Assembly (NCBI GenBank): GCA_016178585.1
Contig: JACOTA010000013.1
Coordinates: 3,183-67,182, forward strand
Direction: 5' to 3'
Source: Nitrospirota bacterium
Lineage (GTDB): Bacteria; Nitrospirota; Nitrospiria; JACQBW01
Length of the DNA stretch: 64,000 nucleotides
The notes under the pieces were generated by a model. That model was not told the origin of the DNA. It saw only the letters and a program-made list of their open reading frames with translations, and ran no database searches. This document shows, one piece after another, positions 3,335 to 61,311 of this stretch (its first letter is position 1; the number at the start of each line of letters is the position of its first letter). The position numbers and the translations under genes were made by a program.

Positions 3335-3350
3335 ATTTCTAATCCTTATT

Positions 3351-3439
3351 TATATTCAGGGGCCGGTGCGCCCCGCCTTCGGCGGATGCTCCGATGCCCC
3401 CCGAACCCCGCGTTCCGCACCGGCTTAGCCGGTTGCTTC
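3351..3439 (-). repeat. F1 structured intercistronic element, copy 1 (pgsA|plsY)
   Basis: Conserved ends TATTCAGGGGCC ... CCCCGAACCCCGCGTTCCGCACCGGCTTAGCCGGTTGCTTC. Confidence 0.8.
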
Positions 3440-3445
3440 CCTTAC

Positions 3446-4903: not shown

Positions 4904-5029
4904 GTCCTGACGTTGAGAAGTGGTCAGTTGCCAGGCCGCAGAATCGAGGCAACGCAGGCGTACGTTAAATGTACGTTGAGGAAGCCGAGATTCGAGAACG
5001 CAGCAAATGGCCACTTATCGACGATCAGG
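4904..5029 (+). ncRNA. F3 structured element, copy a (candidate small RNA; overlaps the kdsC stop)
   Basis: About 125 nt imperfect palindrome. Closing stem CCUGACG...CGAUCAGG and internal hairpin CGUAC-7nt-GUACG. Shares about 75% identity with 32759-32886. Confidence 0.45.
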
Positions 5030-11408: not shown

Positions 11409-11429
11409 TTCATTCCTTAAGCCTTATTT

Positions 11430-11516
11430 TATTCAGGGGCCCGTGCGGTTTCACTCCGTGAAATCCTCCGATGCCCCCGAACCCCGCGTTCCGCACCGAC
11501 TAAGCCGGTTGCTTCA
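11430..11516 (-). repeat. F1 element, copy 2 (lepA|lepB)
   Basis: Same conserved ends. Confidence 0.8.
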
Positions 11517-11529
11517 CTTCATTTCTTAC

Positions 11530-14727: not shown

Positions 14728-14729
14728 CT

Positions 14730-15644: not shown

Positions 15645-16842
15645 GGACAAGCTCCTTTTTCCTAAGATGGATTTGCTTTTTAATCTCTTCAACGATCACT
15701 TCAGGGGGCAGGGTCATTCCACCGGCAACGTGAGGGCCGGCAATCACGCGATCGTTCCGGTCAATCACCGATTTAATTTCTCTCGCCATCCAGCCGGCCA
15801 CGTTAAACTCGGGCACAAAAATGAGTTTGGCATTCTTTGTCGCCCGACGGATTTCCTCGGTGGGGAACGGACGAATGGTTTTAATTTTAACCAGTCCGAC
15901 TTTAATTCCCTCTTCGTTCAATAAACGAATCGCTTCCCGTCCTTGAGCAACCGCCGTTCCTGAAGAAACAATCAGAATGTCGGCATCGGTGTTTTCTTCT
16001 TCAATCAAGCTTCCTCCCAGGTAACGGAGCGAATATTTTCTCGACCGTTCAATGGCAGCCTTAATTTCCTGCTGCCAGCTTGCGTGGGTCGCGTAGCTGA
16101 TATAATTGCTCTTCATCACGAAGGGGTCTCTCATCATCCGGACAGGCGGAGTCTCCATATCCATACAGGGAACGGGAGAACGATAAGGGTCATAATGGGG
16201 AATACAGATGTCGGCGCCGGTTAAGGAAACCATCTCTTTGGTATGGCTGACAAAGAAACCATCGATACAAACCGCAATGGGAAGATGAACATCCGGCTGT
16301 TCAGCCACAATAAATCCTTTCAGGAGCATATCAAACAATTCCTGGGCGGTCTCAGCGTGCCAGATGAGCATTCCGGTGTCTAATAAAAATGCCATCTCCA
16401 GAGTATCCGGCTGAATATTCAAAGGTGAGTTGACACCGCGAACCATCACGTTAATCATAATGGGAAGCCTTGACCCTGCCCACATCGGAAAGTTTTCAAA
16501 CGCTCTTAACGTGCCGGGGCCTGACGTCGTGGTAAAAACCCTTGCGCCTCCAAAAGCGGCGCCGGCGCATTCACCCATCACGGCAAATTCGTTTTCACCT
16601 CTGAAATAATCCCCGACATACCCTTCTGTCCATAACTCCCCGATTAAAGCTGAAGCTTCACTCTGAGGGGTAATAGGATAAGCCACGGAGATGTCAACAC
16701 TGGCTCTCCTGATCGCCTCTTTTACCACTTCGCTCCCCGTTAAGAAAAATTCCTGCCTGGGAGCTTCGAAAAACATATATTCTGGTTGAACAAACTTTTG
16801 TCCCTTCTTATTTAACGTTCCAATCAGATTATTCCCACCCAT
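15637..16842 (-). CDS. 2-oxoacid:ferredoxin oxidoreductase alpha subunit, operon 1
   Basis: 401 aa. Pyruvate-flavodoxin/ferredoxin oxidoreductase domains. Paralogous to 35144-36400. Confidence 0.8.
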   Translation of the reverse strand: MGGNNLIGTLNKKGQKFVQPEYMFFEAPRQEFFLTGSEVVKEAIRRASVDISVAYPITPQSEASALIGELWTEGYVGDYFRGENEFAVMGECAGAAFGGARVFTTTSGPGTLRAFENFPMWAGSRLPIMINVMVRGVNSPLNIQPDTLEMAFLLDTGMLIWHAETAQELFDMLLKGFIVAEQPDVHLPIAVCIDGFFVSHTKEMVSLTGADICIPHYDPYRSPVPCMDMETPPVRMMRDPFVMKSNYISYATHASWQQEIKAAIERSRKYSLRYLGGSLIEEENTDADILIVSSGTAVAQGREAIRLLNEEGIKVGLVKIKTIRPFPTEEIRRATKNAKLIFVPEFNVAGWMAREIKSVIDRNDRVIAGPHVAGGMTLPPEVIVEEIKKQIHLRKKELVHG

Positions 16843-20527: not shown

Positions 20528-20534
20528 TCTATTT

Positions 20535-20642
20535 TATTCAGGGGCCTGTGCCACAAAGCTTGCTCGCGAGCGTTCCCGCAGCGAAGCTATGTTTTCATGC
20601 CCCCGAACCCCGCGTTCCGCAACGGCAAAGCCGGTTGCTTCA
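20535..20642 (-). repeat. F1 element, copy 3 (HDAC-like|VOC)
   Basis: Same conserved ends with a longer variable hairpin. Confidence 0.8.
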
Positions 20643-20648
20643 GCACTC

Positions 20649-22404: not shown

Positions 22405-22495
22405 TTATTCTTTCCAAAACGAATCATTTTTCAATAAACGCATCCATCCGATCATACTGGATTCTGTGACACCCGGTCAATCACCTTTTATCCAC

Positions 22496-22632
22496 CCAAG
22501 ACCAGCGATAGACTTCGCACCCACTTATTAATCATGTCATTGCGAGCACCGAAGGGTGCGTGGCAATCTTATCGTAAAGTCTTGAGATTGCTTCACTTTG
22601 TTCGCAATGACAGCTTTCTAACTCTGTTCTTG
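22496..22632 (-). repeat. 137-bp element, copy A (inverted relative to B and C)
   Basis: Exact reverse complement of 24706-24842. Overlaps the ABC-F stop and last 4 codons. Confidence 0.9.
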
Positions 22633-24528
22633 TTCTTCTATGACTTGAAAAAATTTTTCTTTCTCCCGATAAAGTTCGGGATCGGCCAGCATCGCGGTTA
22701 ATTCCTCAATCCGTTTGTTCTTCTGGTCCAAAACCTTTTCCAGCTCTGCCATCTGGTTTTTTTTGGAATGGTTTTTTTGAAACCGATTATTTCTTAATTC
22801 GGCTTCCAGCCGTTTCTCTTCTTTGGTTTTTCGGGAAGACCGGTTCGCGTTGTCGCCGGTTTTAAGCATCGCCCCCGGTTCTCTTATTCCGGGCGAAGCC
22901 TCGCCCACGCCATTTTGACCGGCGGCCTGAAGTTCTTTTTTGTGGAGGTAATAATCATAATCTCCAACAAAGACCTCCACCTTTCCATTAGAAACTTCTA
23001 TGATTTTGTTCGCGACGGCCCGGATCAGGTGCCGATCATGGGTAATAAGGCAATAAGTTCCTGAATATTCTTTTAAGGATTCTTCAAGGACATTCATCGA
23101 TTGAATGTCAAGATGATTGGTTGGCTCATCCAAAAGCAAAAAGTTAGCAGGTTTCACCAGCATTTTGGCTAAAGCCAAACGGCTTTTTTCACCACCGCTT
23201 AAAACGGAAACTTTTTTGAAAACATCATCGCCAGTAAATAAAAACGATCCTAAAATCCCCCGCAAAAATGACACCGGTTCCATCGGGGCCACCGTGAGTA
23301 TTTCTTCCAAAATTTGGTTTTTTGGGTTTAAAAGTTCCAGCTGATGCTGGGCATAATAAGCGGTCTGGACATGGTGGCCTAACACCCGCTCTCCTTTTTG
23401 AAACGGCGTCGCCCCGGCCAAAAGCTTTAAAAGCGTCGATTTTCCCGCGCCGTTTGGACCCACAAATGCCACTTTGTCTCCTCGTTGAAGCGTTAAATTA
23501 AGACAGGGATAAATAACATTTTGGTCATACCGCTTTTCAATGTCTTTTAATTCAATGACCACTTCTCCCGACCGAATCGGTTGAGGAAATTTAAATCTCA
23601 CCTTCTTTCGTTCAGAGGCAAGCTCGATCTTGTCCATTTTTTCAAGCATTTTAACCCGGCTTTGAACCTGGCTTGCCTTACTTGCCTTTGCGCGAAACCG
23701 CTCTATAAATTTTTCAGTATCCTCTATCTTTTTTTGCTGGTTTTGATAGGCCGAAAGAAGGATCTCCTTGGCCAGCGCCTTTGCCTTTTCATACTGGTCG
23801 TAATTTCCGGTATATTCGGTGAGTTTTTTTTGATCGGCCTCAACGACTTTTGTCACAAGATTGTTCATGAAATTCCGGTCATGGGAGATTAACACGATCG
23901 AACCCTCATATTTCCTTAGGAAACCTTCAAGCCAGAGGACCGATTCCAGATCCAAATGGTTGGTCGGTTCGTCCAAAAGAAGCAGATCAGGGCCCGAAAG
24001 CAAAAGTTTAGCCAGGGCCAGCCGCATCAGCCACCCTCCGCTGAATTCCTCGGTCTTTCGATTTAAATCTCGTTCTTTAAAACTTAAACCAAATAAAATC
24101 TTCTTCGCTTCCGTCTCTAAATTGTAGCCCCCCATATTTTCAAACCTGGTTTGAAGCTCGCCATAATATTGAATTAATTTTTCAAGCTCGTCAGGGTTCG
24201 TTGTTTCTGAAATTTCTGTTTCTAAAACTTTAAGGTGGTGCTCCAAATTTTGTGCATCGCTCGAAACCGTTAACAACTCTTCCAGGACGGTTTTTCCCTT
24301 GAAATAAGTGATGTCCTGGGGAAGATATCCAATGACCGCTTTTTTGTTTCTAACGATGGTCCCGGAGTCAGGCGGTATCATCTCGGCAATCATCAGCATT
24401 AAGGTAGACTTGCCTGCTCCGTTAGGACCAATTAAAGCAATTTTATCCTGCGGCCCTATCCGGAAAGAAATATCGGCAAAAAGGGTTCTACTACCAAAAC
24501 TTTTACAAATATTATTAAGTGAAATCAA
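22618..24528 (-). CDS. ABC-F family ATPase (Uup-like, two NBDs plus C-terminal coiled coil)
   Basis: Two Walker A motifs GPNGAGKST and two ABC signatures ([24 protein letters not shown]). Charged coiled-coil tail. The last four codons and the stop lie inside a 137-bp repeat. Confidence 0.85.
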
Positions 24529-24705
24529 TTACGTACTCCATTTTTTTCCGCTGTTTATCAGATATCCCGTCCTTTTAAAAATCACCTTTTCTGCGAAAAG
24601 GCAGGCAAATTATCTTTTTCGTTAACAGGGTCCTTCTTAAACATCATGATTTTAATAAATGGTATTCTTTTTTGTTAAGCGACGGTTTATGACATGTATC
24701 AAGCC

Positions 24706-24842
24706 CAAGAACAGAGTTAGAAAGCTGTCATTGCGAACAAAGTGAAGCAATCTCAAGACTTTACGATAAGATTGCCACGCACCCTTCGGTGCTCGCAATG
24801 ACATGATTAATAAGTGGGTGCGAAGTCTATCGCTGGTCTTGG
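24706..24842 (+). repeat. 137-bp element, copy B
   Basis: Identical to RC of copy A. Nested hairpins (GTCATTGCGA...TCGCAATGAC; GCAATCT...AGATTGC; cUUCGg). Confidence 0.9.
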
Positions 24843-31167: not shown

Positions 31168-31286
31168 TTTTTTATTGAGGTGAGCGATACATCCACAAAC
31201 GGTTAAATATAAGGTAATTCATGGGTAGAGTAAAGAAAATTGTGGAAACACCTTGATCTGATTTTGCGCCTGCCTTATGATGTAAG

Positions 31287-31396
31287 TGAAGCATCTGGCT
31301 CTGCCAGTGACGGACTTGGGAATGGTCGTAGTGAGACCGAGCGTAACGCGGGGTTCGGGGGCATTGAGAGTGAAGTGCTCGAAGGCCTCCTGAATA
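31287..31396 (+). repeat. F1 element, copy 4 (inverted on the chromosome; precedes the + strand radical SAM gene)
   Basis: Reverse complement of the consensus. Contains one 32-bp CGGTCT..GTC sub-module. Confidence 0.8.
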
Positions 31397-31402
31397 TAAT
31401 AA

Positions 31403-32275
31403 GTGAAGCAAAATCCTAACCTTTCTAAAGCCTTTTCCGACCATCGTCGCAGTTACGATCGTAACCGGCATGTTTATCCGGTTATTTCAAGGCGGTCAAA
31501 AGGGCTGTCGATAGGGATTAATCTTAACCCCGACAAGGTCTGTAACTTCGATTGTGTTTACTGCCAGGTTGACCGACGGGCTCCAGGTCATCCACCCCTG
31601 GTCGAAATTCCTCTCATCCTCCATGAGCTTAAGGAAATCCTTGAATCGGTCATGTCGGGTCAATTTTACCTGGACCCCCGGTTTAAGGATATTCCGCGTG
31701 ATCAGCTTATTTTAAGGGATATTGCTTTTTCCGGAGACGGAGAACCTTCCACCTTTCCGCTATTTTTAGAGTTAACCCAGGGAGTGATTTCGCTGAAAAA
31801 TGAATTAGGTCTTTTCGAACTCAAGGTCGTCGTGATTACCAATGCTTCAGGTCTGGGCCGTCTGGAGGTTCAAAAAGCCCTTGACTTATTGGATAATCAT
31901 CACGGGGAAATTTGGGCCAAACTTGACGCAGGGACGGAGGCTTACTTTCATAAAATTTGCCGGACACCGTTAGGTTTTCAAAAAATCTTGAATAATATTC
32001 AGTTTGCCGCCCAAAAAAGACCTATTGTGATTCAATCCTGTTTTATGAAAATCGATGGGAAAGGACCATCAGAAGATGAATTAGAGGCTTACGCAGAACA
32101 ATTCCGGCGAATTTTGGAGAACCATGGCAAGTTAAAGCTGATCCAGATCTACACCGTTGCGCGAGTTCCTGCCGAACCCTATGTCACCCCCCTGGAGGAC
32201 CATGAGCTTGATGAAATTGTCGAACGAATAAGATTAAAAATAAATGTGCCGTTGGAAGCTTTTTACCACGCTTAA
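31403..32275 (+). CDS. Radical SAM protein
   Basis: CNFDCVYC (CxxxCxxC) near the N-terminus. GTG start immediately after a repeat element; the exact start is uncertain. Confidence 0.6.
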   Translation: MKQNPNLSKAFSDHRRSYDRNRHVYPVISRRSKGLSIGINLNPDKVCNFDCVYCQVDRRAPGHPPLVEIPLILHELKEILESVMSGQFYLDPRFKDIPRDQLILRDIAFSGDGEPSTFPLFLELTQGVISLKNELGLFELKVVVITNASGLGRLEVQKALDLLDNHHGEIWAKLDAGTEAYFHKICRTPLGFQKILNNIQFAAQKRPIVIQSCFMKIDGKGPSEDELEAYAEQFRRILENHGKLKLIQIYTVARVPAEPYVTPLEDHELDEIVERIRLKINVPLEAFYHA

Positions 32276-32758: not shown

Positions 32759-32886
32759 GTCCTGAACGTGGAGATGAGGTCAGTTGCAAGGCCGCAGCTT
32801 TGAGGGCGACGCAGGCGTACTTTGTCGGTACGTCGAGGAGACCGAAAGGCGAGAACGCAGCAAATGGCCTCGTATCAGCGTTCAGG
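32759..32886 (+). ncRNA. F3 structured element, copy b (fills a convergent intergenic gap)
   Basis: Same architecture, with compensatory changes in the closing stem. Confidence 0.45.
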
Positions 32887-33472: not shown

Positions 33473-34174
33473 CTAGGCGGTAACCTTTTGTTTCGCGGGT
33501 TTAGCCACCTGCCACCCCTGCTCAATCGCATAATGATGAGCAAAGGTAATCGCATCCATATTTTTTTGAATCAGCAGGGCTTTTTTGGCGAACTTTTTTT
33601 CAATCACGTTATCTAACGATGCGGTCCCGCCGGAAACCACAAATCCTTTACCCAAAAACCTGTCCTTGACAGATTGCTCAAGGGACACAAGATCAGGCAT
33701 TCCCATAATTCCTGCCATGGCGCCGCACATCGCCATGTTGGTCGCTAATTCTGTTCCCGCGACTTCACTGGCAATCTTGGTGGCCGGCAGATAATATACC
33801 TTGGCCTCTTTTTCCTTTAATTCTCTTTCTTCATCCTCAATAAGCGGAAGAGGCGTATCGTTGTTAATGAGAACGATTCCGCCCTGTTTAAGGCCTGAAT
33901 AAAAAGGCATCGTGTAAGACTTTCCATGGGTGATCACCTGAGAGTGGAAGATCATTAAAGCGTTCGGAAAAATGATTTCTCCAATTTCATAAATACGATC
34001 CTCGGAAATCCGCACATAACTTTCAACCGGAGCCATCCGTTTTTCAGACCCGAAAAACGGAACAAGCGTGCTTTCTCCGCCACTGACAATGACCGCATTG
34101 CTGAGAATGTGAGAAGCGGTCACCACACCCTGCCCGCCAATTCCAGCCATACGAATATTATATCGTTTCCTCAT
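33473..34174 (-). CDS. 2-oxoacid:ferredoxin oxidoreductase gamma subunit, operon 2
   Basis: 233 aa. Confidence 0.8.
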   Translation of the reverse strand: MRKRYNIRMAGIGGQGVVTASHILSNAVIVSGGESTLVPFFGSEKRMAPVESYVRISEDRIYEIGEIIFPNALMIFHSQVITHGKSYTMPFYSGLKQGGIVLINNDTPLPLIEDEERELKEKEAKVYYLPATKIASEVAGTELATNMAMCGAMAGIMGMPDLVSLEQSVKDRFLGKGFVVSGGTASLDNVIEKKFAKKALLIQKNMDAITFAHHYAIEQGWQVAKPAKQKVTA

Positions 34175-34209
34175 TAATTTATTCCTTCTATCTTATGGTT
34201 AAACCGAAT

Positions 34210-35082
34210 TCAGGAAGCGGCCGCCGTTTTTTTATTTTCCTTTTCGACGCGCGCTAAATATTCTTTCGCCTCATCGGAAATAATTTCCATAAATCCATAA
34301 CGATCTTTTTCAACTGCTCGCGCATCGTCCATGACCTTGGGTGTCGGAATCGCATATTCAATGTTGCAGGAGGTGTAAGCCTGAACATAGGTCGGCCCGA
34401 TCTCCCTGGCAATTAAAACAGCCTTCCGAATCACGCTGGCGATGCGGGTTGGGTTGGTTGGAGCCAGCCGCACGATGTAAGGAAGTCCGGCGGTTTTGGC
34501 AAGGCCAATAACATCCATTTTTTCAAACTTTTTACCAAAGGGAGCCATCTTAAGGACCATCCCTTTGGTGGTCATGCCGCTTTCCTGGCCGCCGGTGTTT
34601 CCATAAACCTCGTTATCCAACATGATCGTTGTAAATTTTTCTTTTCTAAACCAGGAATGCATCAGGGCGCTAAAGCCGATGTCGACCAGGCCGCCGTCGC
34701 CCGCCATGACAACGACATCTTTTGGCTGATTTTCATGGCGAATCGACAGACCCCTTTTTAAACCGGAGGCCACCGCATTGGTGTCGCCATAGTTTCCGTA
34801 AACGAAAGGAATATTAGCCTGAGAAAGAGCCAAACGTCCGCAGCCGGCAGTCCCGATGATAATCGTATGTTCCGGATTGGGGAGCCCCACCATGGTCAAC
34901 CGGATAAAGAGGGTCATGGCACATCCCGCGCACATCGGATGTTCCTCTAAAAGCTCTTTAAAGCTTCCCATTTCGGAAACTTTTACCTGACGGCCATAAG
35001 GGCCTCTTTCAACCAGGTCCACATATTCTTTTGGCATATAATGGGAAAAACCATCTGCTATTTTAACGGTATCTAATGACAT
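34210..35082 (-). CDS. 2-oxoacid:ferredoxin oxidoreductase beta subunit, operon 2
   Basis: 290 aa. Motif GDGGLVDIG. Confidence 0.8.
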   Translation of the reverse strand: MSLDTVKIADGFSHYMPKEYVDLVERGPYGRQVKVSEMGSFKELLEEHPMCAGCAMTLFIRLTMVGLPNPEHTIIIGTAGCGRLALSQANIPFVYGNYGDTNAVASGLKRGLSIRHENQPKDVVVMAGDGGLVDIGFSALMHSWFRKEKFTTIMLDNEVYGNTGGQESGMTTKGMVLKMAPFGKKFEKMDVIGLAKTAGLPYIVRLAPTNPTRIASVIRKAVLIAREIGPTYVQAYTSCNIEYAIPTPKVMDDARAVEKDRYGFMEIISDEAKEYLARVEKENKKTAAAS

Positions 35083-35143
35083 CTGTTCCCTTTCCTGTTT
35101 TTTCTTCTAAAGAAGAATTTAGTTTGGATTAACGATCTTGAAC

Positions 35144-36400
35144 CTAAAAGCGTTTACCGCCGGCCTGAGGGAAAATATAATCCAAAATCATCTCTGTGGG
35201 CATCGACATTCCACCAAAAACACGGGGACCATCGGCAATTTCCGCGTGAGTATGCCCGTATAAGGTATTTCGCACTTCTTTGGTATGCCATCCGACATAA
35301 TTAAACTCCGGAACAATAATTCTTTTGGCATGCTTGCAAGCTTCAATTAATTCAAGTCTCGGATATGGCCGGATCGATTTTATTTTCACAAGACCGATCT
35401 TCACGCCATGATCTTCTTCAGCCTGCCGAACGGCCTCCCTGGACTGGGAAACGGCGCTTCCGGAAGCGACAATCATAATATCGGAGCCGGGATTAACGAC
35501 TTCAACTGCGCTTCCCATATATTGGTTAATATACCGGCGGGACCTTTCATGAGCGGCAAAAACTTCCTGCTGCCAGGAAGCGTGCATATGGTAACTGATA
35601 AAATTTGATTTTTGAATCGGCGCATCTCTGGAGATACGGGCCGGAGGATTTTCGTTGTCCATACAAGGTGTCGCGGCACGATAAGGATCTCTCGGAGGAA
35701 GCTTGATATCTTTAGGAGGTAATTCAACATATCCGCGGGCATGGGTCACAAAGAATCCATCGACCGCGACGACAACAGGAATATTGACATCGACTTTTTC
35801 TGTAATCATAAACGCTTTCATGGTATAGTCGAAAAAGTCTTGCTGATTTTCGGCGTGGAAAAGAAGAACTCCGGTATTTAAAAGATAGGACAGTTCAACG
35901 TTGTCCGGCTGAATGGCAAGCGGCGCATTCACCACGCGACACATCACGAGAAGAACCAGAGGCATGCGTCCTCCGGGCCATGAGGCGATCACTTCAAGGC
36001 CCCTTAAAAGGCCAGGTCCGGCTGTCGCCGTCAGCGCACGCACACCGGAACGGGATGCCCCGGAAATCGCCGACATGACACCGTATTCTTCTTCACCTCT
36101 ATAATAATCCTTTAAATAACCTTCCGCATAAAGATATCCCACCTGTTGCATCGTTTCGCTCTGAGGCGTAATCGGGTAAGAAATGGCAATATCCACATTA
36201 GAACGGCGAATCGCCTCTTTGGCTGCCTCGCTGCCGGTGATAAAAACCCTTTCCCGGGGAGCTTCAAAGAACATATGTTCAGGGGTAACAACCCGTTGTA
36301 ACGAAGCCTCGCTTACTTTTTCTTTTTTTGGCGCCTCCGCTACGGATATGACGTCCCCTTGCGGGTTTGTTTTTACTTCTGTTTCTACTCCTTCAGACAC
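35144..36400 (-). CDS. 2-oxoacid:ferredoxin oxidoreductase alpha subunit, operon 2
   Basis: 418 aa. Confidence 0.8.
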   Translation of the reverse strand: MSEGVETEVKTNPQGDVISVAEAPKKEKVSEASLQRVVTPEHMFFEAPRERVFITGSEAAKEAIRRSNVDIAISYPITPQSETMQQVGYLYAEGYLKDYYRGEEEYGVMSAISGASRSGVRALTATAGPGLLRGLEVIASWPGGRMPLVLLVMCRVVNAPLAIQPDNVELSYLLNTGVLLFHAENQQDFFDYTMKAFMITEKVDVNIPVVVAVDGFFVTHARGYVELPPKDIKLPPRDPYRAATPCMDNENPPARISRDAPIQKSNFISYHMHASWQQEVFAAHERSRRYINQYMGSAVEVVNPGSDIMIVASGSAVSQSREAVRQAEEDHGVKIGLVKIKSIRPYPRLELIEACKHAKRIIVPEFNYVGWHTKEVRNTLYGHTHAEIADGPRVFGGMSMPTEMILDYIFPQAGGKRF

Positions 36401-41868: not shown

Positions 41869-41883
41869 TAAATCCTCCTATTT

Positions 41884-41962
41884 TATATTCAGGGGTCTTC
41901 GAGAAAAACACTCTCAATGCCCCCGAACCCCGCGTTACGCACTGGCAAAGCCAGTTGCTTCA
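41884..41962 (-). repeat. F1 element, copy 5 (FAD-oxidoreductase|gcvH)
   Basis: Same conserved ends. Confidence 0.8.
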
Positions 41963-41982
41963 CTTATTAGAATTGAATATGT

Positions 41983-49865: not shown

Positions 49866-51371
49866 TTAAGGGATAAAAGTGACGAATAAAGTCCGCCCCT
49901 GTCTGTTGATCAGGAATAAAACCTGTGTCCCTTTGTTAATCTGGCTCATAATGCGATTGTAATCTTCCGTGTTTTTAACAACGATCCGGTTGATTTCCAA
50001 AAGAATATCCCCTCTCAAAATCCCTGCCTCTTCAGCAGGACTACCGGCTTCAACATTGGTAACAGCGATATGATTCCCCTTAAACGGAACCCCTAATCGC
50101 CGGGCCGTTTCAGGAGTCAGGTTCGTCACCTCCAGGCCGCTGATATCCCGGCTTTCTTCGCTGTTTTTACCCCCTTCCTCTCCGCTTGTTTTCACTAAAT
50201 CCTTAGGCTGTTCCCCAATATTAACTTCGATTGAAATCTCTTTTTTATCACGGATGATTGCCATTTTCACCCGGGTTCCTACCCTCGTCTGAGCAACCGA
50301 ATTCCTTAAGTGTCCGGGATTGTCAACCGGATTACCTTGATACTGAACGATGACATCACCCCTTTTTATTCCGGCTTTTTCGGCCGGGCTCTTTTCCATG
50401 ACGTCGCTCACCAGCGCTCCGGCGTTTTCCTTAATACCAAATTGTTTGGCCAGGTTGGGATTAATTTCCTGAATCGAAACCCCGAGCCAACCTCGAACCA
50501 CTTTGCCCTCTTTTTTGATACTTTCCAAAACAGCCCTGGCCATGTCGGTTGGAATAGCAAAACCAATTCCCATGTAGCCGCCGCTTTTGGAAAAAATTGC
50601 CGTGTTGATCCCGATCAGTTCCCCTCGAGTATTAACCAGAGCTCCGCCTGAATTACCCGGATTGATGGCCGCATCCGTTTGAATAAAGTCTTCGTAATCC
50701 GATATTCCGACATTCGCCCGTCCGATGGCGCTGATGATCCCCATCGTCACGGTTTGATTGAGGCCAAACGGATTTCCGATCGCCAGCACATATTCTCCAA
50801 CCTCCATTTTACTCGAATCCCCCATGGGAATCGTAGGAAGGTCCCTGGCCTCTATTTTGACGACGGCGATATCTGTTTTTGGGTCGGTCCCCAGTACCTT
50901 TCCTTTGAACTCTCTCTTATCGGATAGCAACACTTTAATCTCATCCGCGTTGGCAATCACATGATTATTCGTGATAATAATTCCATTGGATTCGACAATC
51001 ACCCCGGACCCAAGGCTTTGTTCCTTGCGCTCTCTCGGCTGCTCAAATTGACGCCCTAACTCGTCACCAAAAAAACGCCTGAAGAAAGGATCCTCAAAAA
51101 AAGGATTCGGTCCCATTTCATTCTTCACAAGACGGGTTGTCGAAATATTAACCACAGCGGGAGTCGCCGCTTTTGAAATTTCAACAAAAGTCTCGTCGGG
51201 TTTATGTAACCCCGGAAGCAGGGGCACTGCGGATTTTTTCTCATTGTTAACCGCCTTTCCGGAAGGGGTCAGGTTTAAATTCGAAGAAATTGTGATTCCT
51301 AAAATCACACCCAAAACAATCAAAAAAATCGAGATGGAAACCCATTTACGAACCGTTTTATAGTCTTGCAT
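49866..51371 (-). CDS. DegP/DegQ-family periplasmic serine protease (2 PDZ)
   Basis: 501 aa. Motif GNSGGAL plus a signal anchor. Confidence 0.85.
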   Translation of the reverse strand: MQDYKTVRKWVSISIFLIVLGVILGITISSNLNLTPSGKAVNNEKKSAVPLLPGLHKPDETFVEISKAATPAVVNISTTRLVKNEMGPNPFFEDPFFRRFFGDELGRQFEQPRERKEQSLGSGVIVESNGIIITNNHVIANADEIKVLLSDKREFKGKVLGTDPKTDIAVVKIEARDLPTIPMGDSSKMEVGEYVLAIGNPFGLNQTVTMGIISAIGRANVGISDYEDFIQTDAAINPGNSGGALVNTRGELIGINTAIFSKSGGYMGIGFAIPTDMARAVLESIKKEGKVVRGWLGVSIQEINPNLAKQFGIKENAGALVSDVMEKSPAEKAGIKRGDVIVQYQGNPVDNPGHLRNSVAQTRVGTRVKMAIIRDKKEISIEVNIGEQPKDLVKTSGEEGGKNSEESRDISGLEVTNLTPETARRLGVPFKGNHIAVTNVEAGSPAEEAGILRGDILLEINRIVVKNTEDYNRIMSQINKGTQVLFLINRQGRTLFVTFIP

Positions 51372-51578
51372 TCACTACTCCTTATATCAAATTTAAGACA
51401 TTGATTTATAAGCCATTAAAAAATTTAAATTTTTAAAACAAATGAGTGAGATTATTATATCGGATGTTCGGGTCTTAGTAAAGCATCCCCTCTTTTTTCT
51501 ATTCCTTGCTTCTGCCAGACAGTTTTATTTATGATAAGCTCATCTTTTAATTCATGATTAAACAAAAAGCAGGAAAAA

Positions 51579-52940
51579 ATGCTCTCCAAAAACGAGAAAC
51601 AGAGACTCATCGAGGGTGATCACAAATATCTGTGGCATCCCTTTACTCAGATGCGGGATTGGTTAAACGAACTCCCTGTGATCATAGAAAGAGGGGAAGG
51701 AATCTTTCTCTGGGATACCGATGGGAATCGATATTTTGACGGATACTCTTCAGTCTGGGTTAACCTCCACGGTCATCGAAGAGAAGAAATCAATCAGGCC
51801 ATTGAATCCCAACTCAATAAAGTCGCTCATTCCACTTTTTTGGGTTTAAGCAATATCCCTGCCGTTCAGCTCGCCGAGAAATTGATTCGTCTTGCGCCAA
51901 TCGGCCTTTCGCGGGTCTTTTATTCGGATAATGGATCGACCGCCGTGGAAATTGCCCTAAAAATCGCCTTTCAATACTGGCACCAAAAAGGCGCAATTTT
52001 TCAGAAAAAAACGAAATTTATTGCCCTCTATAATGGTTATCATGGAGATACCATTGGAACGATGAGCGTCGGAGGAATTCCTCTGTTTCAGAATCTGTTT
52101 AAGTCTTTGTACTTTTCCAGTTACAAAGTCGAGTCCCCTTATTGCTACCGTTGTCCTTTAAATTTAAAGTTTCCCGACTGTCAGATCGCCTGCCTGGATC
52201 CCATGGAAGAGGTTCTCAAAAGCCGCCATGAGGAAATAGCGGCCATTGTCATAGAACCGGGGCTTCAAGCCGCCGGTGGAATGATCGTTCTTCCGCCCGG
52301 CTATTTAACCCGGGTCAGTGAATTGTCGAAAAAATATGGCTGCCTATTGATCGCGGACGAGGTTGCCACCGGGTTTGGAAGAACCGGAAAAATGTTTGCC
52401 TGCAATCACGAAAATGTATCGCCTGATTTAATGGCTGTTGCAAAGGGTTTAACGGGAGGATATCTTCCTCTGGCCGCTACACTGGCCACGGAAGAAATCT
52501 TTGAAGCGTTTTTAGGATCGTATGAAGACTTTAAAACTTTTTTCCACGGGCATAGTTATACGGGAAATCAGCTAGGGTGCGCCGCCGGAATCGCCAATTT
52601 GGAGATTTTTGAGAAGGAAAACACCTTGCAGATTCTGCAAGGAAAAATTCACCAATTCAAAAAAATGCTGGAGCCTCTTTACAACCTGAAGGGGGTCGGA
52701 GATATCCGGCAAATCGGCTTGATTGGAATTATCGAACTGGTTAAAAACAAAAAAACGAAAGAACCTTTCATGTTAAAAGAAAAAAAAGGTATGAAGGTCT
52801 GTCAGGAGGCCCGAAAAAGAGGCCTTTTAATTCGGCCTCTGGGGAACATTCTTGTTTTAATGCCCCCCTTATCCGCTTCTCCCGGCCAGTTGCATGAAAT
52901 AATCAGCATTTTGGGGGAATCTATAAGAACAGCCATTTAA
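51579..52940 (+). CDS. bioA: Adenosylmethionine-8-amino-7-oxononanoate aminotransferase
   Basis: Class III aminotransferase. N-terminus HKYLWHPFTQM, PLP-Lys region. Confidence 0.8.
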   Translation: MLSKNEKQRLIEGDHKYLWHPFTQMRDWLNELPVIIERGEGIFLWDTDGNRYFDGYSSVWVNLHGHRREEINQAIESQLNKVAHSTFLGLSNIPAVQLAEKLIRLAPIGLSRVFYSDNGSTAVEIALKIAFQYWHQKGAIFQKKTKFIALYNGYHGDTIGTMSVGGIPLFQNLFKSLYFSSYKVESPYCYRCPLNLKFPDCQIACLDPMEEVLKSRHEEIAAIVIEPGLQAAGGMIVLPPGYLTRVSELSKKYGCLLIADEVATGFGRTGKMFACNHENVSPDLMAVAKGLTGGYLPLAATLATEEIFEAFLGSYEDFKTFFHGHSYTGNQLGCAAGIANLEIFEKENTLQILQGKIHQFKKMLEPLYNLKGVGDIRQIGLIGIIELVKNKKTKEPFMLKEKKGMKVCQEARKRGLLIRPLGNILVLMPPLSASPGQLHEIISILGESIRTAI

Positions 52941-52968
52941 TGATTTAATAAAAACCCCTGTTAAAAAG

Positions 52969-53535
52969 TTATTTCTTTTTAATATCCTGAGAATGATAAT
53001 GCCTGAGATAACTCCGGGTAAGGTTTTTGGGGTCAACGTTTAAATATTTGGCGTATTCTGAAAGATAACTTTTTAAATAGACCTCAGCGGGAAAATTTTT
53101 AAATTGGTTTTCCTCAATTGCCACCAAATAATTCACTCCGATCCGGGTGTGTGACACCAGGTTCTGCAAGCTAATTCCCTTTTGCTCACGGAGATTTTTT
53201 AAAAAAGAACCTGTTATTGAATCGGGAAACGAAATCGGCGTTTTGAGTTCAGACTCTTTCTGAACCGGAGCCCATGGATCAGGAGAATCTGATCCTCTCG
53301 CAAGAAAGATATCATAACTTTTCCTCCGGTCAAAATCAGACAAAATGTGGTAAGCTTCCTCGATTTTCAGCCAGATGGCGGCTCTTTCTTCCTCGGAGAA
53401 AAGCGAGAGCGTTGCGAGGTTCTTTTCTCCAAAAGTCTTTTTTGCTAAAAAATAAGCGGTTTTAATCTGCTTTAAAGTCGCATCCTGCGGGACTTCGAGC
53501 AGCTCGTAATAATTAGAATCCTGGTATCTGTTCAT
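52969..53535 (-). CDS. J-domain-like protein lacking HPD, with C-terminal XRE-type HTH
   Basis: YYELLEV...AYHILSD..RRKSYD J-fold without an HPD tripeptide. C-terminal HTH GISLQNLVSHTRIGVNYLVAIE. Confidence 0.5.
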   Translation of the reverse strand: MNRYQDSNYYELLEVPQDATLKQIKTAYFLAKKTFGEKNLATLSLFSEEERAAIWLKIEEAYHILSDFDRRKSYDIFLARGSDSPDPWAPVQKESELKTPISFPDSITGSFLKNLREQKGISLQNLVSHTRIGVNYLVAIEENQFKNFPAEVYLKSYLSEYAKYLNVDPKNLTRSYLRHYHSQDIKKK

Positions 53536-53541
53536 CCATTC

Positions 53542-53616
53542 TATTCAGGGGCCTTCGCAAACGACGCTCAATGCCCCCGAACCCCGCGTTCCGCACTGGC
53601 AAAGCCAGTTGCTTCA
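53542..53616 (-). repeat. F1 element, copy 6a
   Basis: First unit of a tandem pair. Confidence 0.8.
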
Positions 53617-53623
53617 TCCATTC

Positions 53624-53794
53624 TATTCAGGGGCCTTCGCAAACGACACTCAATGCCCCCGAACCCCGCGTTCCACTCGGTCTAACTACGACCATTCCAA
53701 AGTCCGTCTCGGTCTAACTACGACCATTCCAAAGTCCGTCTCGGTCTAACGACGACCATTCCAAAGTCCGTCACTGGCAAAGCCAGTTGCTTCA
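53624..53794 (-). repeat. F1 element, copy 6b with three tandem 32-bp sub-modules (53678-53773)
   Basis: Second tandem unit. CGGTCTAACTACGACCATTCCAAAGTCCGTCT repeated three times. Confidence 0.8.
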
Positions 53795-54754
53795 CTGGAC
53801 TAAAAAGTCAAAACTTAGCTGTTCTTTTTTTAATAAGTTATGCGATATTCGATTAATCCCCTGCGCCGAAGTGGAATAGGGATATTCGAGCATCAGCGGA
53901 CGGCTCATTTTCGTTGCCCTCCATACCGAATCATCATATTCGACATAGCCTACATATTCTATCTGAATTCCAAAATATTTGGAACAGGAACTACGCATCG
54001 AAAAACCGAGCGCGATATCATCTTTTGACCGTACCTGGTTAACGATGATTTTAGGTTTGAAATTATAAATCTGTTCCTTTAATGTCCTTCCGACTTCAAA
54101 ATCGATTTTTTCCACCTGTTCGATTAAATCAAAAGGAGTTCGAATTCCCAGGTCATTTTTCTGGTCCATCGCCTGCGTAATAACGGCTTTAATCGCGGGA
54201 TCTTTGACAACTTTTTTAAACCGCCTGTAAAAAGAACTTTTGATAAACCGATAAACGTTTTCGATGGACGTCGGCTCCGGGAGGACCGTCAAAATTCCGA
54301 CATCCGAAATCAGAAAAAAATCCAAAATATTAAAAGAAGTTCCCGCCCCCAAATCAAGAATGATGTACTCAAAATCGAGTTCCTGAATCTGCCGGATAAG
54401 CTTCATTTTTTCGCGATATTTTGGATTCGCGATTTCCAAAAAATCCTGGGCCCCGCTGATTAGCGATAAATTGGGTATTTGCGTTTCGAGCAAAACTTCA
54501 TGGATGGACTTTACTTTTCCCCGTATAAAATCCGAAAGGGTGGCCCCTTTCACGGAAATTCCCAAACAGGTATGAAGATTGGCGCAGCCTAAATCCGCGT
54601 CAATTAAAATGACTTTTTTCCCTAATCGGGTGAGAGAAATCGCAAGGTTTCCGGATAAGAAGGTCTTTCCGGTTCCTCCCTTTCCTCCGCCAACGGCCCA
54701 GATTTCCCGGTTTTGCGCTTTTAATTTACCTTTAAGGATATCGACTGAAGACAT
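53792..54754 (-). CDS. MinD/ParA-family P-loop ATPase
   Basis: Deviant Walker A GGGKGGTGKT. 320 aa. Confidence 0.7.
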   Translation of the reverse strand: MSSVDILKGKLKAQNREIWAVGGGKGGTGKTFLSGNLAISLTRLGKKVILIDADLGCANLHTCLGISVKGATLSDFIRGKVKSIHEVLLETQIPNLSLISGAQDFLEIANPKYREKMKLIRQIQELDFEYIILDLGAGTSFNILDFFLISDVGILTVLPEPTSIENVYRFIKSSFYRRFKKVVKDPAIKAVITQAMDQKNDLGIRTPFDLIEQVEKIDFEVGRTLKEQIYNFKPKIIVNQVRSKDDIALGFSMRSSCSKYFGIQIEYVGYVEYDDSVWRATKMSRPLMLEYPYSTSAQGINRISHNLLKKEQLSFDFLVQ

Positions 54755-54813
54755 TTGACATATTTGTATAATAACCTCATTATTTTTTCAAGCACTTTAA
54801 AAAATGTTGTATA

Positions 54814-55713
54814 ATGCGGCAGATGCGACTGAATTCGTTAAAAACCCTCTTGATTGTTAACCCCAATTCAGGTCCCCTTCATAAAAGAAGAGCTATCCCC
54901 CGGGTCATTTCTTACCTTCAAGATTACCTTCCTGAACTCGAAATTGTATTTACTCAAAAAAGCGGAGACGCCGCTGCTCTGGTCAAAAACAGCCTCCTTA
55001 AAAAAGTTGAGCTGGTCTTTTGTGCCGGCGGAGACGGAACCATTAATGAGGTGGCCAACCAACTCTACGGTACGGCCGTCTTGCTGGGTATTATTCCGGT
55101 TGGGACTGGAAACGGGTTGGCGAGGGAGATAGGGCTTTCCCTTGATCCGATAAAGGCCGTCGATCAGGTTCTTAACGGCAAGGTCATTCCGGTCTATCCT
55201 GGAACGATTAATGACCATAGATTTTTTCTGGTTTCCGGCGCAGGTTTTGACGCGTTCGTCTCTTATCAAACAGACTTCCACCACCCCCGGCTTAAAAAGA
55301 TAACCGGTTTTCTTTCCTATATCATGGTAGGAATTGCCGTTGGGTGGAAATACCCTTTTTCTCCCATAACCGCCAGAATTGACGGAAAACCCTGCCGGTG
55401 TTACGGATTACTCGTGATGAAGGCAAAAGCTAAAATTGGACCTTTCACCCTGGCCGGCACTCTTTCGTTGCAGGAAAGTCAAATGGGGGTTTTTGTTTTT
55501 ACCAAAAAAGGAATTTGGAGCATCGCCAGGTTTTTCTTTGCGTTTTTATTCCGTTGTCACATGACACTTTCGGAAACCCCGTTTATCTTTTTCAGTCAAT
55601 TAGAAGCCGAGTCCGAAACGCCGGTCCCCGTGGAATTTGACGGCGAACAGGCAAAACCGCTTCCAACCACCTGGGAGCAATCAAAAAAACATGTCCTTTT
55701 GATTTACCCTTAA
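54814..55713 (+). CDS. Diacylglycerol-kinase-catalytic-domain lipid kinase (YegS/BmrU-like)
   Basis: Motifs LIVNPNSG and GGDGT. Confidence 0.7.
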   Translation: MRQMRLNSLKTLLIVNPNSGPLHKRRAIPRVISYLQDYLPELEIVFTQKSGDAAALVKNSLLKKVELVFCAGGDGTINEVANQLYGTAVLLGIIPVGTGNGLAREIGLSLDPIKAVDQVLNGKVIPVYPGTINDHRFFLVSGAGFDAFVSYQTDFHHPRLKKITGFLSYIMVGIAVGWKYPFSPITARIDGKPCRCYGLLVMKAKAKIGPFTLAGTLSLQESQMGVFVFTKKGIWSIARFFFAFLFRCHMTLSETPFIFFSQLEAESETPVPVEFDGEQAKPLPTTWEQSKKHVLLIYP

Positions 55714-56184
55714 ATGAAAGAGACCTTTATGTCCCGGTTTTTTTATCTCCTCCTTTTTTATCTGTTTATTGCCCTGGGCCGGCCTGTCGATGCCTCGCAA
55801 ACGGCCAACATTGATCAAAAAAAAATCAGCATTATCCTCCCGGGGGGTGAAAAAATCGAAGCCGTCGTCGCGGACACGACCACGGCACGATCCACCGGGT
55901 TGATGGGGCGTTCCCGCCTCGGCCTGAATGAAGGAATGCTTTTTTTATTTAAAACCACAGAACCTCATTTGATGTGGATGAAGAACATGTTAATCCCGAT
56001 CGATATTATCTGGTTGAATGAAAAAAAGGAAATAATCGAAATCGTTCAATCGGCCCCGCCCTGTTCGAACGATCCGTGCGAGGTCTTCGGACCGGAACTT
56101 CCTTCACGTTATGTCTTAGAAATAAAAGACGGATCGTCTAATTTACTGCATCTCCAGAAAGGCCTAACGCTCAAATTCCCTTGA
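55714..56184 (+). CDS. DUF192 family protein
   Basis: Signal peptide. Motifs LMGR...GMLF and IPIDIIWL. Confidence 0.6.
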   Translation: MKETFMSRFFYLLLFYLFIALGRPVDASQTANIDQKKISIILPGGEKIEAVVADTTTARSTGLMGRSRLGLNEGMLFLFKTTEPHLMWMKNMLIPIDIIWLNEKKEIIEIVQSAPPCSNDPCEVFGPELPSRYVLEIKDGSSNLLHLQKGLTLKFP

Positions 56185-56313
56185 TTGTCTGAATTTTGTT
56201 GTGCTAGGATATGCCATTACCATTACCTCTTAATATGATAGACCTATATCAATTTTCAGCAACAACACCTGTTTACAAAGTAAATCATCGACAGGATTCA
56301 TAAGGAATAATTT

Positions 56314-56757
56314 ATGTCTTTTTTTAAACGCCGTCTAAAGTTTCGCCCAACCCTTTCCACGCCTTCCTGGTGGAAAATGGTCCTCAATAAAATAAGACGG
56401 ACCTACCTCTGTTACTTTAACCCTGACTATGTCAAAGAAGCTGAAGCCACTCGAGTCGGAGAGTGCGTCGGTTGCGGAAAGTGTTGCACCCTGGTTTTTA
56501 AATGTGTCTTTCTGGAAGGATCGGAAGAACAGTCTCGCTGTAAAATTTATGATATCGGCAGACCTAAACCCTGCGGGGCATTTCCCATCGATCCAAAAGA
56601 TTTAGCGGATGTCAATTTCCTGTGCGGTTACTCCTTTGTCAGTTCTAGGGAAACCAAACCTACTATAACGGGTGTCCCTCCTTTTGAAATTAACCCTTCC
56701 CTCGAACCTGCTTTTTCTTTAATCCGAAAGATTGAGGTGAACCTGATTAATGAGTAA
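56314..56757 (+). CDS. YkgJ-family (CxxCxxCC) putative Fe-S/zinc protein
   Basis: Motifs CVGCGKCC and CKIY...PCGAFP. Confidence 0.6.
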   Translation: MSFFKRRLKFRPTLSTPSWWKMVLNKIRRTYLCYFNPDYVKEAEATRVGECVGCGKCCTLVFKCVFLEGSEEQSRCKIYDIGRPKPCGAFPIDPKDLADVNFLCGYSFVSSRETKPTITGVPPFEINPSLEPAFSLIRKIEVNLINE

Positions 56758-60209: not shown

Positions 60210-60231
60210 TCCTAAAATTCCTTTTCGATTA

Positions 60232-60359
60232 TATTCAGGGGCCCGTGCGGAGAAATGATTAAAACCATATGTCCGCTACGGGATCGCTCCCAAAGCAGGC
60301 TCGGAGGCTCCAAATGCCCCCGAACCCCGCGTTACGGACTGGCAAAGCCAAGTGCTTCA
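60232..60359 (-). repeat. F1 element, copy 7 (upstream of the 94-aa gene)
   Basis: Same conserved ends. TATAAT lies 3 nt upstream in transcript sense. Confidence 0.8.
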
Positions 60360-60624
60360 CTTTATTATACCCCTTTTGCTTTCAAGTCTAGCATGGAAAC
60401 TTATCAAAAAAAGCCTCTTTAAGTCAAGTTAAATCAATGACTTATTGTAATCCTTCAGTGAAACGGGGCGATACACACGAAAGGGCCTGGTGTGACCTGA
60501 ACGGAGACTTCGGCGAAGTTTGTTGATCCCTCCATAATGTAAAGTCCAGAAATGAGGATAACTTCGTCGGCGTCGGAGAGACGGTCATTCCAGGTCCTTG
60601 AAAACCCTTGACTGAATGGTTCCC

Positions 60625-60760
60625 AAGAACAGAGTTAGAAAGCTGTCATTGCGAACAAAGTGAAGCAATCTCAAGACTTTACGATAAGATTGCCACGCAC
60701 CCTTCGGTGCTCGCAATGACATGATTAATAAGTGGGTGCGAAGTCTATCGCTGGTCTAGG
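60625..60760 (+). repeat. 137-bp element, copy C
   Basis: One mismatch to copy B. Confidence 0.9.
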
Positions 60761-61167: not shown

Positions 61168-61200
61168 GAGACGGATTGTGGAATGGTCGTAGTTAGACCG
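61168..61200 (-). repeat. Solo 32-bp sub-module (CGGTCTAACTACGACCATTCCACAATCCGTCT)
   Basis: Occurs outside any F1 element, downstream of pgpA. Confidence 0.6.
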
Positions 61201-61311
61201 AAAAAGTGGTTTTTTTGTCATTCCCGTGCAAACGGGAATCCAGTTTTTTCAAGTCGTTATGTTCTCCCTAGATTCCCGCTTTCGCGGGAATGACGAATTT
61301 TTACAAGACCA

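Follow-up and report, generated by a model that had tools for sequence, protein, structure and literature searches.

Head-to-tail copies of a small modular repeat between a MinD-like and a J-like gene in an uncultured Nitrospirota bacterium

Organisation of the MinD-like/J-like junction

The window, that is, the whole 64-kb stretch of DNA analysed here, contains a MinD/ParA-like ATPase gene followed by a J-like gene in which a DnaJ domain is combined with a RodZ-like HTH_25 domain, both encoded on the minus strand (Table 1). The 256-nt gap between them consists entirely of repeat DNA that reads 5' to 3' on the minus strand, and the TGA stop codon of the MinD-like gene (53792-53794) lies within the first bases of the repeat element (GTGAAGCA). 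A first-pass annotation of this DNA had placed a repeat array between the two genes, which stands; the present analysis adds that both genes lie on the minus strand, which is also the strand on which the array is read.

Two layers of repetition are superimposed in this gap. The outer layer is a head-to-tail duplication, proposed in the first-pass annotation as an element of about 82 bp and recovered by repeat search as copies at 53531-53603 and 53613-53685 with a start-to-start spacing of 82. The first 62 nt of both 82-bp units match save one base, and divergence begins at the insertion of 32-mers. The proximal unit, e53a, is a short form without the 32-nt module and shows no difference from the one unit present in the short allele described below (L001 sequence, BLAST). 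The distal unit, e53b, is arranged from its 5' end as GTGAAGCAAC, the P1 hairpin ACUGGC-UUU-GCCAGU, three 32-nt modules, UGGAACGCGGGG, the P2 stem and the 3' end CUGAAUAGAA, with the P2 stem (UUCGGGGGC/GCCCCUGAA) enclosing a small inner hairpin. Because of the 96-nt insert, the covariance model of the family matches only the P1 part of e53b, as a separate hit.

The inner layer is the array of 32-nt modules, for which Tandem Repeats Finder reports positions 53676-53772, a period of 32, 3.0 copies, 98% matches and a score of 187, which far exceeds any other array of the 64-kb window and makes it the sole strong one. In a pattern search, the copies at 53678-53709 and 53710-53741 show no mismatches and the copy at 53742-53773 shows two. 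Three copies had been annotated over 53678-53773, and these are retained; of the two substitutions assigned to the third copy, however, one is a boundary base. In RNA sense the unit reads ACGGACUUUGGAAUGGUCGUAGUUAGACCGAG; the two 32-mers closest to P2 are identical, and the P1-adjacent one carries an internal A-to-C change. The array is flanked by GCGTTCCAC and TGGCAAAGCC, which are contiguous in the other family copies, so that alignment also bears out the proposal that the modules were inserted where other copies are uninterrupted. No significant fold of its own was found for the array (z = 0.29).

Table 1. Positions of the genes, repeat units, modules and family copies in the window
Feature	Position	Strand	Source
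MinD/ParA-like ATPase gene	53792..54754	-	ORF call; Pfam AAA_31/CbiA/ParA
J-like gene (DnaJ domain and RodZ-like HTH_25)	52969..53535	-	ORF; Pfam
Distal unit e53b	53621..53795	-	Alignments, fold
Three 32-nt modules in tandem	53676..53773	-	Tandem Repeats Finder, pattern search, blastn-short
Proximal unit e53a, short form without 32-nt module	53539..53616	-	Covariance match 53537-53619, 95.7 bits
Duplication junction UGGAUGAA	53613..53620	-	Sequence; comparison with empty sites and short allele
23-nt direct repeat TGAAGCAACTGGCTTTGCCAGTG	53594..53616, partner 53772-53794	-	Sequence
34-codon uORF made by the duplication	53513..53617	-	ORF analysis
Family copy, pgsA-plsY junction	3348..3443	-	Covariance model, gene annotation
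Family copy, lepA-lepB junction	11425..11519	-	Covariance model
Family copy, deacetylase-glyoxalase junction, with long variable hairpin	20530..20645	-	Covariance model, fold
Family copy with one 32-nt module (31308-31339), 5' of radical-SAM gene	31284..31401	+	Covariance model, pattern search
Family copy, FAD-oxidoreductase-gcvH junction	41881..41965	-	Covariance model
Family copy 5' of 94-aa ORF, with long variable insert	60227..60362	-	Covariance model, fold
Solo 32-nt module 3' of pgpA, in a 3' UTR-like position	61169..61200	+	Pattern search, sister-MAG comparison

A structured repeat family at gene junctions

The element belongs to a family with eight dispersed copies in the window. The minimal element, of about 78 nt, consists of the 5' sequence GTGAAGCAAC, P1, GCGGAACGCGGGG, a long P2 stem with a variable hairpin inside and the 3' sequence CUGAAUAUAA; in the orientation of the downstream gene, the family order is GUGAAGCAAC, P1 (ACYGGC-UNN-GCCRGU), GCGKAACGCGGGG, P2 and CUGAAUAUAA. 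P2 is a stem of 9-10 bp (UUCGGGGGC / GCCCCUGAA) around a variable segment of 20-90 nt that always forms a hairpin of its own. A covariance model with 14 copies as input recovers every copy in the window at 65-105 bits. Copies range from 78 to 136 nt, are built of two unlike hairpins and form arrays that are head-to-tail only. No Rfam family matches the element, either across the whole window at gathering thresholds or over 53480-53850 at E <= 10, and a tRNA/tmRNA scan returned nothing but an unrelated tRNA-Arg. Terminal inverted repeats are absent, the 5' end GTGAAGCAAC and the 3' end CCCCTGAATATAA not being complementary, and an inverted-repeat search found only arms belonging to different copies. 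A search for transposition machinery for the element identified no associated transposase.

All confident copies lie in sense orientation to the downstream gene, just 5' of its start codon. At five co-directional loci (pgsA-plsY, lepA-lepB, deacetylase-glyoxalase, FAD-oxidoreductase-gcvH and MinD-like-J-like) the intergenic space is nearly filled by the element, which leaves 0-17 nt after the stop codon of the upstream gene and 1-17 nt ahead of the downstream start, while at the remaining two loci in the window it lies 5' of the first gene of a unit. The sole plus-strand copy (31284-31401) precedes a plus-strand gene, so that in this single instance orientation tracks the gene rather than the majority strand. 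A Nitrospiria MAG (L010/L011) and a metagenome contig (L013) follow the sense-orientation rule as well; the exception is a weak, degenerate copy in L030 (17 bits), which is reversed.

The conservation of pairing points in the same direction. Across 16 copies, 92.4% of cells are paired, compared with 29-41% when partners are slid, with double changes in four pairs, and in 16/16 copies the gene-sense strand folds better than its complement, by a mean of 9.5 kcal/mol; the copies share descent, so that the strand-asymmetry, pairing and shuffle statistics overstate independence and are supportive rather than proof. In the diverged copy L028, a U-A pair of P1 has become A-U and a C-G pair of P2 has become U-A. 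From the exclusive sense orientation, the structure confined to the sense strand and these compensatory changes, we infer that the family shares the transcripts of its host operons and is under constraint at the RNA level. The genes downstream of the copies (plsY, lepB, glyoxalase, radical SAM, gcvH and DnaJ-HTH) are unrelated in function, which argues against a gene-specific regulator.

These properties could also describe a functional cis-acting RNA of operon junctions, serving as an RNase processing or stability determinant or as an insulator that presents the ribosome-binding region, with the 32-nt module as a protein- or RNA-binding platform and the duplication as an adaptive change of dosage. 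The strict sense orientation 1-17 nt upstream of start codons, the sense-strand-only stability with its compensatory changes, the variable insert that is always a hairpin and the AAGGA or GGAGG that directly follows several copies are all consistent with such a role, and for ERIC, BIME and Correia elements that are transcribed, effects on the stability or processing of the transcript have been reported (PMC3049150). We nevertheless consider this reading unlikely, since the downstream genes share no function, close relatives do without the element at these junctions, the orientation bias can also stem from purifying selection against harmful orientations, and the 32-nt array lacks significant structure.

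A promoter or terminator cassette that sets up independent transcription units at each junction, its signal doubled by the duplication, is a highly improbable account of the element. Its 3' end does carry a TAnAAT-like hexamer (TATAAT, TATAAA, TAAAAT or TAGAAT) after TG, and Correia and BrickBuilt elements can carry promoters (PMC3049150, PMC4596501). However, a consensus scan revealed no promoter-like or terminator-like site in the element, a -35 sequence at a usable spacing is absent, no U tract follows P2, and in L010 only 2 nt separate the end of the hexamer from the mature 5' end of tRNA-Trp, an arrangement incompatible with a start site for that tRNA.

The family appears confined to a narrow clade. 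Among 185,579 GTDB species representatives, the element core was found in only one other genome, a Nitrospiria MAG (L010, L011), where copies lie near tRNA-Trp/secE/nusG and include head-to-tail pairs. Additional copies were identified in L013, L028 and L030; the gene downstream of the L013 metagenome copy is presumably nuoA, judging from its translation. Viral contigs gave 0 matches to the core and 0 to the 32-mer, and a covariance search of 20 kb found no copies in relatives with 64-77% J-like identity. A core match in a high-GC Deltaproteobacteria MAG (L012) was without element context and was set aside as chance. A full-text literature search for the core sequences found no paper, and a search on Nitrospira repeat elements found nothing relevant. 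This repeat family of uncultured Nitrospirota is previously undescribed, but of a known general kind.

The 32-nt module is distributed differently from the element. Elsewhere in the window it occurs at 31308-31339 (3 mismatches), within the inverted 31-kb copy, and at 61169-61200 (2 mismatches), the latter as a solo copy, in accordance with the two occurrences that had been annotated there; 100 shuffles gave no 32-mer match by chance. Inside elements, modules always lie between P1 and GCGGAACGC (53-kb locus, window 31308-31339 and L013), so that family copies contain 0, 1 or 3 modules at one shared position, and for the 31-kb copy Logan unitigs of other runs give the same P1-to-module junction. 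The solo 32-mer adjoins a REPIN-like hairpin pair (61217-61294) and is single and identical in the sister MAG. A scan of JGI metagenomes yielded only two external cases of the 32-mer, L013 and L014, and in L014 it sits within the loop of an unrelated REP-like hairpin; this hairpin lies 5' of a gene that we take to be tatA from its translation. In every context the 32-mer is preceded by G(U/A)G. Local alignment of the 32-mer to the rest of the element was no better than that of shuffles (p about 0.5), which indicates that it is not derived from the element, and beyond the five window copies and across all fetched loci blastn-short retrieved no degenerate 32-mers. On this distribution, the 32-mer behaves as a separable optional module, in line with the first-pass annotation, which had described it as independently expanding or mobile. 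It may have reached its positions by insertion, by gene conversion between long-form and short-form copies or by recombination.

Empty sites, alleles and the origin of the long form

Comparison with relatives distinguishes filled from empty sites at three junctions. In L015, L016, L017, L018 and L019, the stop codon of the MinD-like gene and the start codon of the J-like gene overlap as ATGA, with no element between them (J-like identity 80% in L019, 77% in L015/L016 and 64% in L017/L018). The closest relative reads ...TTAGTGCA followed immediately by TGGATGAAC, and in the present species GTGAAGCAAC...CUGAAUAGAA is inserted at exactly this point. Whereas the MinD-like ORF ends in ..HG or ..NG before the stop in relatives, ..HG has become ..Q here, and the TGA of the inserted element now stops the ORF. 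The lepA/lepB junction has a 30-nt spacer in L030, L031 and L032 (LepB 81% and 75% identical) and is filled in L028 and L029 (90% relative) at the same position, 12 nt past the stop; the pgsA/plsY spacer is 3 nt in L030. This presence/absence polymorphism at the orthologous MinD/J, lepA/lepB and pgsA/plsY sites identifies the element as an insertion, which, as judged from the alignments, is placed between formerly overlapping MinD-like and J-like genes. Across the three filled/empty sites there is no consistent target-site duplication: the MinD/J site shows no duplication past a possible TGAA, the pgsA/plsY site has a TATAAATAGG-like repeat that coincides with the 3' consensus of the element itself, and the lepA/lepB site has a loose AAGnAATGAA repeat.

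Two alleles of the inserted locus were identified. A contig of GCA_016195515.1 is 99.8% identical to window positions 49969-56713 but 178 bp shorter; its intergenic region is 78 nt and holds one unit, with neither the duplication nor a 32-mer. The long allele thus equals the short allele plus 178 bp (82 + 96). Logan unitigs (k=31) with their start in the unique MinD-like gene run up to ...GCCAGTGACGGA, and thus into the 32-mer, in SRR12113411, SRR12113389 and SRR12113415, while the corresponding unitig of SRR12113414 ends in ...GCCAGTGCGGAA, which is the short allele. On the other side, the first 31-mer of the J-like unitigs in SRR12113413 and SRR12113389 is exactly the one that ends with the base after GGATGAA. 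A branch at GGATGAA (C versus G) is the product of the duplication junction, and the SRR12113414 unitig reads through this point. Signatures of the long allele are therefore present in four runs, and the short allele in one run and in GCA_016195515.1; the comparison genomes are MAGs or k=31 unitigs, and the copy number of three and the full structure of the long allele are resolved by the present assembly only. Within-sample heterogeneity was not seen in the five runs, each of which shows one allele at the diagnostic k-mers. A single allele per run, together with unitigs that extend past the branch point, places the difference between populations, and on this k-mer evidence the locus is polymorphic between populations and both alleles exist in nature. 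Copy number is not the same everywhere, since near-identical genomes differ in it, and further 32-mers exist outside the array.

The unitig evidence indicates that the short/long difference is not just assembly collapse. Conversely, it is exceedingly improbable that the long allele is an artefact, an erroneous repeat expansion in a metagenome contig. Metagenome assemblers do mishandle repeats, the sister MAG has one unit and the unitigs of all runs break at these repeats. Yet in three runs independent k=31 unitigs connect the unique flank on the MinD-like side with the 32-mer, the unitigs of two runs break at the predicted duplication branch while those of the short-allele run do not, and the third 32-mer and the distal unit carry private substitutions, which are not expected of assembly error.

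The structure of the junctions suggests how the two alleles are related. The long allele contains the junctions MinD flank/32-mer, 32-mer/32-mer and GGATGAAGCAAC. The duplication junction UGGAUGAA consists of 4 nt of native flank (UGGA) and a duplicated copy of the J-like start codon. The 82-bp unit spans from TGAA (CAG-TGAA-GCA) to TGAA (GGA-TGAA-CAG), with this microhomology at both its ends, and holds TGGA together with the beginning of the J-like start. Both units also have private variants in common, namely UAGAA in place of UAUAA and an identical inner hairpin. The native flank, the start codon and the shared private variants point to a local segmental duplication, and on these same grounds a second transposition was rejected as the source of the tandem pair. 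The 82-bp unit would have been duplicated by slippage or unequal exchange at the TGAA microhomology, and the 32-nt module may have been amplified in tandem in the manner of a minisatellite; two identical P2-side 32-mers beside a changed P1-side one are what a recent tandem amplification should leave. In the opposite direction, a single deletion with the 23-nt direct repeats TGAAGCAACTGGCTTTGCCAGTG as its end points would convert the long into the short allele with a loss of exactly 178 bp. The short-allele sequence L001 aligns to the window as two blocks with 27 nt of the query common to both (BLAST). Between these two genomes, a single 178-bp deletion would be more parsimonious, and either polarity is possible. 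Under both, the allele difference would have arisen by ordinary repeat-mediated replication slippage or unequal recombination.

Consequences for the genes and relation to known repeats

Both proteins remain intact after the insertion, and the ATGA overlap is lost; the insertion is presumed to have abolished translational coupling of the MinD-like/J-like pair. The immediate surroundings of the J-like start, which belong to the proximal unit, are the same in both alleles. Given these identical surroundings and the absence of a promoter or terminator consensus, an on/off switch is not expected. The most concrete consequence predicted from the sequence is a different one. In the long allele, the duplicated AUG opens a 34-codon uORF whose upstream context is identical to that of the real start over at least 75 nt; the uORF runs across the real AUG (53535) in a different frame and terminates 20 nt past it. 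This decoy start and its uORF could in this way alter translation of the J-like gene.

The first-pass annotation had viewed the array as a site of phase variation or length tuning for the J-like gene, that is, as a contingency locus in which frequent slipped-strand changes of copy number switch or tune the J-like/HTH gene. The tandem units are perfect, two of them being identical, two genomes of 99.8% identity differ at the locus, and an influence of BOX elements on the phase variation of genes next to them has been proposed (PMC3049150). This role is quite improbable here and the claim is not supported: the five runs have one allele each at the diagnostic k-mers, the alleles differ by a compound 178-bp block and not by unit steps, and the array is non-coding and about 140 nt 5' of the start codon, from which an intact proximal element separates it. 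Moreover, the consensus scan found no sigma-70-like promoter whose spacing could be altered, the 32-nt unit is a minisatellite whereas contingency repeats are typically 1-9 nt, and at 31308 and 61169 the module is present as one stable copy each. The array shares with contingency loci perfect tandem repeats near a gene start, the number of which slippage could change, but it lies outside the coding frame and any promoter spacer, and heterogeneity within samples was not detected.

The closest parallel is offered by BOX elements of S. pneumoniae and S. suis, in which boxA and boxC surround a variable tandem number of boxB (PMC3049150). Like BOX, the present family comprises small, non-coding, modular interspersed repeats with constant 5' and 3' modules, between which an internal module is absent, single or in tandem (0 to n). 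In both, the internal module folds largely independently, so that its number varies without disrupting the structure (PMC3049150), the repeat is transcribed with neighbouring genes (for this family, by inference) and differences of copy number between strains are known. The likeness, drawn from the published description, has its limits: this family lacks terminal inverted repeats, BOX is enriched between convergent genes whereas this family lies in sense between co-directional genes directly 5' of start codons, and the hosts are Firmicutes and Nitrospirota, respectively. Considering host and GC content, homology to boxA, boxB or boxC is very unlikely, and the resemblance would be one of architecture.

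BrickBuilt, a MITE of Porphyromonas gingivalis, contains a minisatellite with a 23-nt unit, the copy number of which ranges from 1 to 22.8 (PMC4596501). It too is intergenic, with the minisatellite nested between leader and tail and with filled and empty loci among related strains. BrickBuilt, however, has small inverted-repeat ends, which this family lacks, as well as promoter activity in both directions, and it consists mostly of the tandem unit, whereas most copies of this family are without the module and their constant part is a conserved pair of hairpins. ERIC/IRU, BIME/REP and Correia elements are likewise structured repeats in transcribed intergenic regions of operons, with orientation-dependent effects and often clustered or in tandem. 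ERIC and Correia are long imperfect palindromes or bounded by inverted repeats, in contrast to the two different hairpins and the lack of an overall palindrome here, and REPs are RAYT-linked palindromes of 20-40 nt in alternating orientation, whereas this family is arranged head-to-tail only. The strict sense orientation at operon junctions and the sense-strand-specific structure make the family distinctive.

Several other classes were considered and rejected. A MITE in the strict sense would have inverted-repeat ends, which are missing even though presence/absence polymorphism was found. REP/REPIN sequences do not fit an element of 78-136 nt with two unlike hairpins in exclusively head-to-tail arrays, and a CRISPR array does not fit 32-nt units that abut without spacers. 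A riboswitch or gene-specific leader RNA is contradicted by unrelated downstream genes and the lack of an Rfam match, and integron attC sites by copies 8-20 kb apart among conserved syntenic housekeeping genes, with no palindromic core sites.

Taken together, the locus probably contains two head-to-tail copies of a small, non-coding, lineage-specific repeat that was inserted between the genes and then diversified by repeat-driven change, with no dedicated switch. The family, comparable to BOX elements, is most likely a parasite of gene junctions that the genome tolerates rather than a dedicated switch. A bolder version, which we regard as distinctly unlikely, would see in it a sense-strand RNA module that colonises operon stop/start junctions, replaces translational coupling with an insulator and an AU-rich/SD landing pad, and spreads via an RNA or single-strand intermediate, with the 32-nt module separately mobile. 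Such an intermediate would explain the orientation rule as well as the missing inverted repeats and target duplications. If this bolder version were true, module multiplicity and the decoy start codon would set the ratio of MinD-like to J-like expression, and a 32-nt binding platform could land in unrelated hairpins, as in L014.

As it stands, the locus represents ordinary repeat biology in a new host, with no demonstrated genetic switch. The family has practical consequences: it fragments short-read assemblies, with unitigs and MAG contigs breaking at its copies, and it yields spurious ORFs, such as ...SMPPNPAFRTGKA.... The junction also provides a natural series at one site, from the empty site through the single insertion to the duplicated and expanded allele, in which a small structured repeat appears to have split a translationally coupled gene pair and then diversified by slippage. 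If the orientation rule reflects function and not mere survival, the family would make it feasible to study how inserted RNA structure is tolerated or exploited at operon junctions.

Tandem layout and false reading frames of the main element

Head-to-tail pairs of the main element, the two-hairpin repeat found in sense orientation upstream of start codons, recur in L010 and L011, two loci of a Nitrospiria metagenome-assembled genome, where they lie on either side of tRNA-Trp and also before secE and nusG. The family has thus adopted the tandem layout repeatedly, and the locus in the gap between the MinD-like and J-like genes is not the sole case. At the 31-kb copy, a second TAAGTGAAGCAA (31392-31412) follows the element and repeats its first 11-12 nt, and the GTG predicted as start codon of the radical-SAM gene falls within this string. 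The string may be what is left of a tandem copy after truncation, or else a duplication related to the target. When the element is translated antisense, spurious ORFs arise, whose shared peptide could serve to survey protein databases for the family and to mark erroneous gene predictions in MAGs of Nitrospirota.

LepB (10800-11408) has 202 aa here versus 193 aa in its database version, to which it is 100% identical over 96% query coverage. The downstream ATG may therefore be the true start, and the gap from the main element to the start codon would then grow by 27 nt.

Features of the window and of related loci
Feature	Position	Description
Main element, head-to-tail pairs, some degenerate	L010 496-975; L011 2770-2930	Nitrospiria MAG SMAG_U11475
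Spurious antisense ORFs	window 53571-53717 (+); L010 334-981, 576-956, 1191-1358 (-)	contain ...MPPNPAFRTGKA...
REP-like hairpins, inverted pair	window 61217-61239 (+), 61272-61294 (-)	GTCATTCCCG(N6)CGGGAAT
139-142-nt repeat, three copies	window 22494-22637, 24701-24842, 60622-60760	99% identity
82-nt repeat, two copies	window 4948-5029, 32805-32886	79% identity
2-oxoacid:ferredoxin oxidoreductase clusters, two paralogous	window 14047-16842, 33473-36400	three genes each: POR, TPP_enzyme_C, POR_N/PFOR_II

Other repeats of the window

The inverted REP-like hairpins, a REPIN-like layout, adjoin the solo 32-mer in the convergent pgpA/PLD intergenic region. Logan unitigs from 5/5 runs break inside this pair, which must therefore be present in many copies in these genomes. 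In a metagenome contig (L014) the 32-mer has a related hairpin, GTCATGCCCGCGTAGGCGGGCAT, next to it.

Two inverted copies of the 139-142-nt repeat bracket the gene (22618-24528) for an ABC-F type ATPase, and the third is close to the 60-kb main-element copy. The sister MAG contig stops about 175 nt before reaching the 60-kb copy. This repeat contains a palindrome, GTCATTGCGA...TCGCAATGAC, and a string, AAAGTGAAGCAATC, that is similar to the main element's 5' end. Long direct repeats spaced ~19.45 kb arise because the two oxidoreductase clusters, with ~71-73% DNA identity, are paralogous.

Gene junctions as possible landing sites

The junction between the KdsC-like hydrolase and lipid A acyltransferase genes is filled by the first copy of the 82-nt repeat, and at the matching site in a relative (L030, 16368-16451) stands a main-element copy that has diverged. 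Several repeat families seem to share gene junctions here as landing sites.
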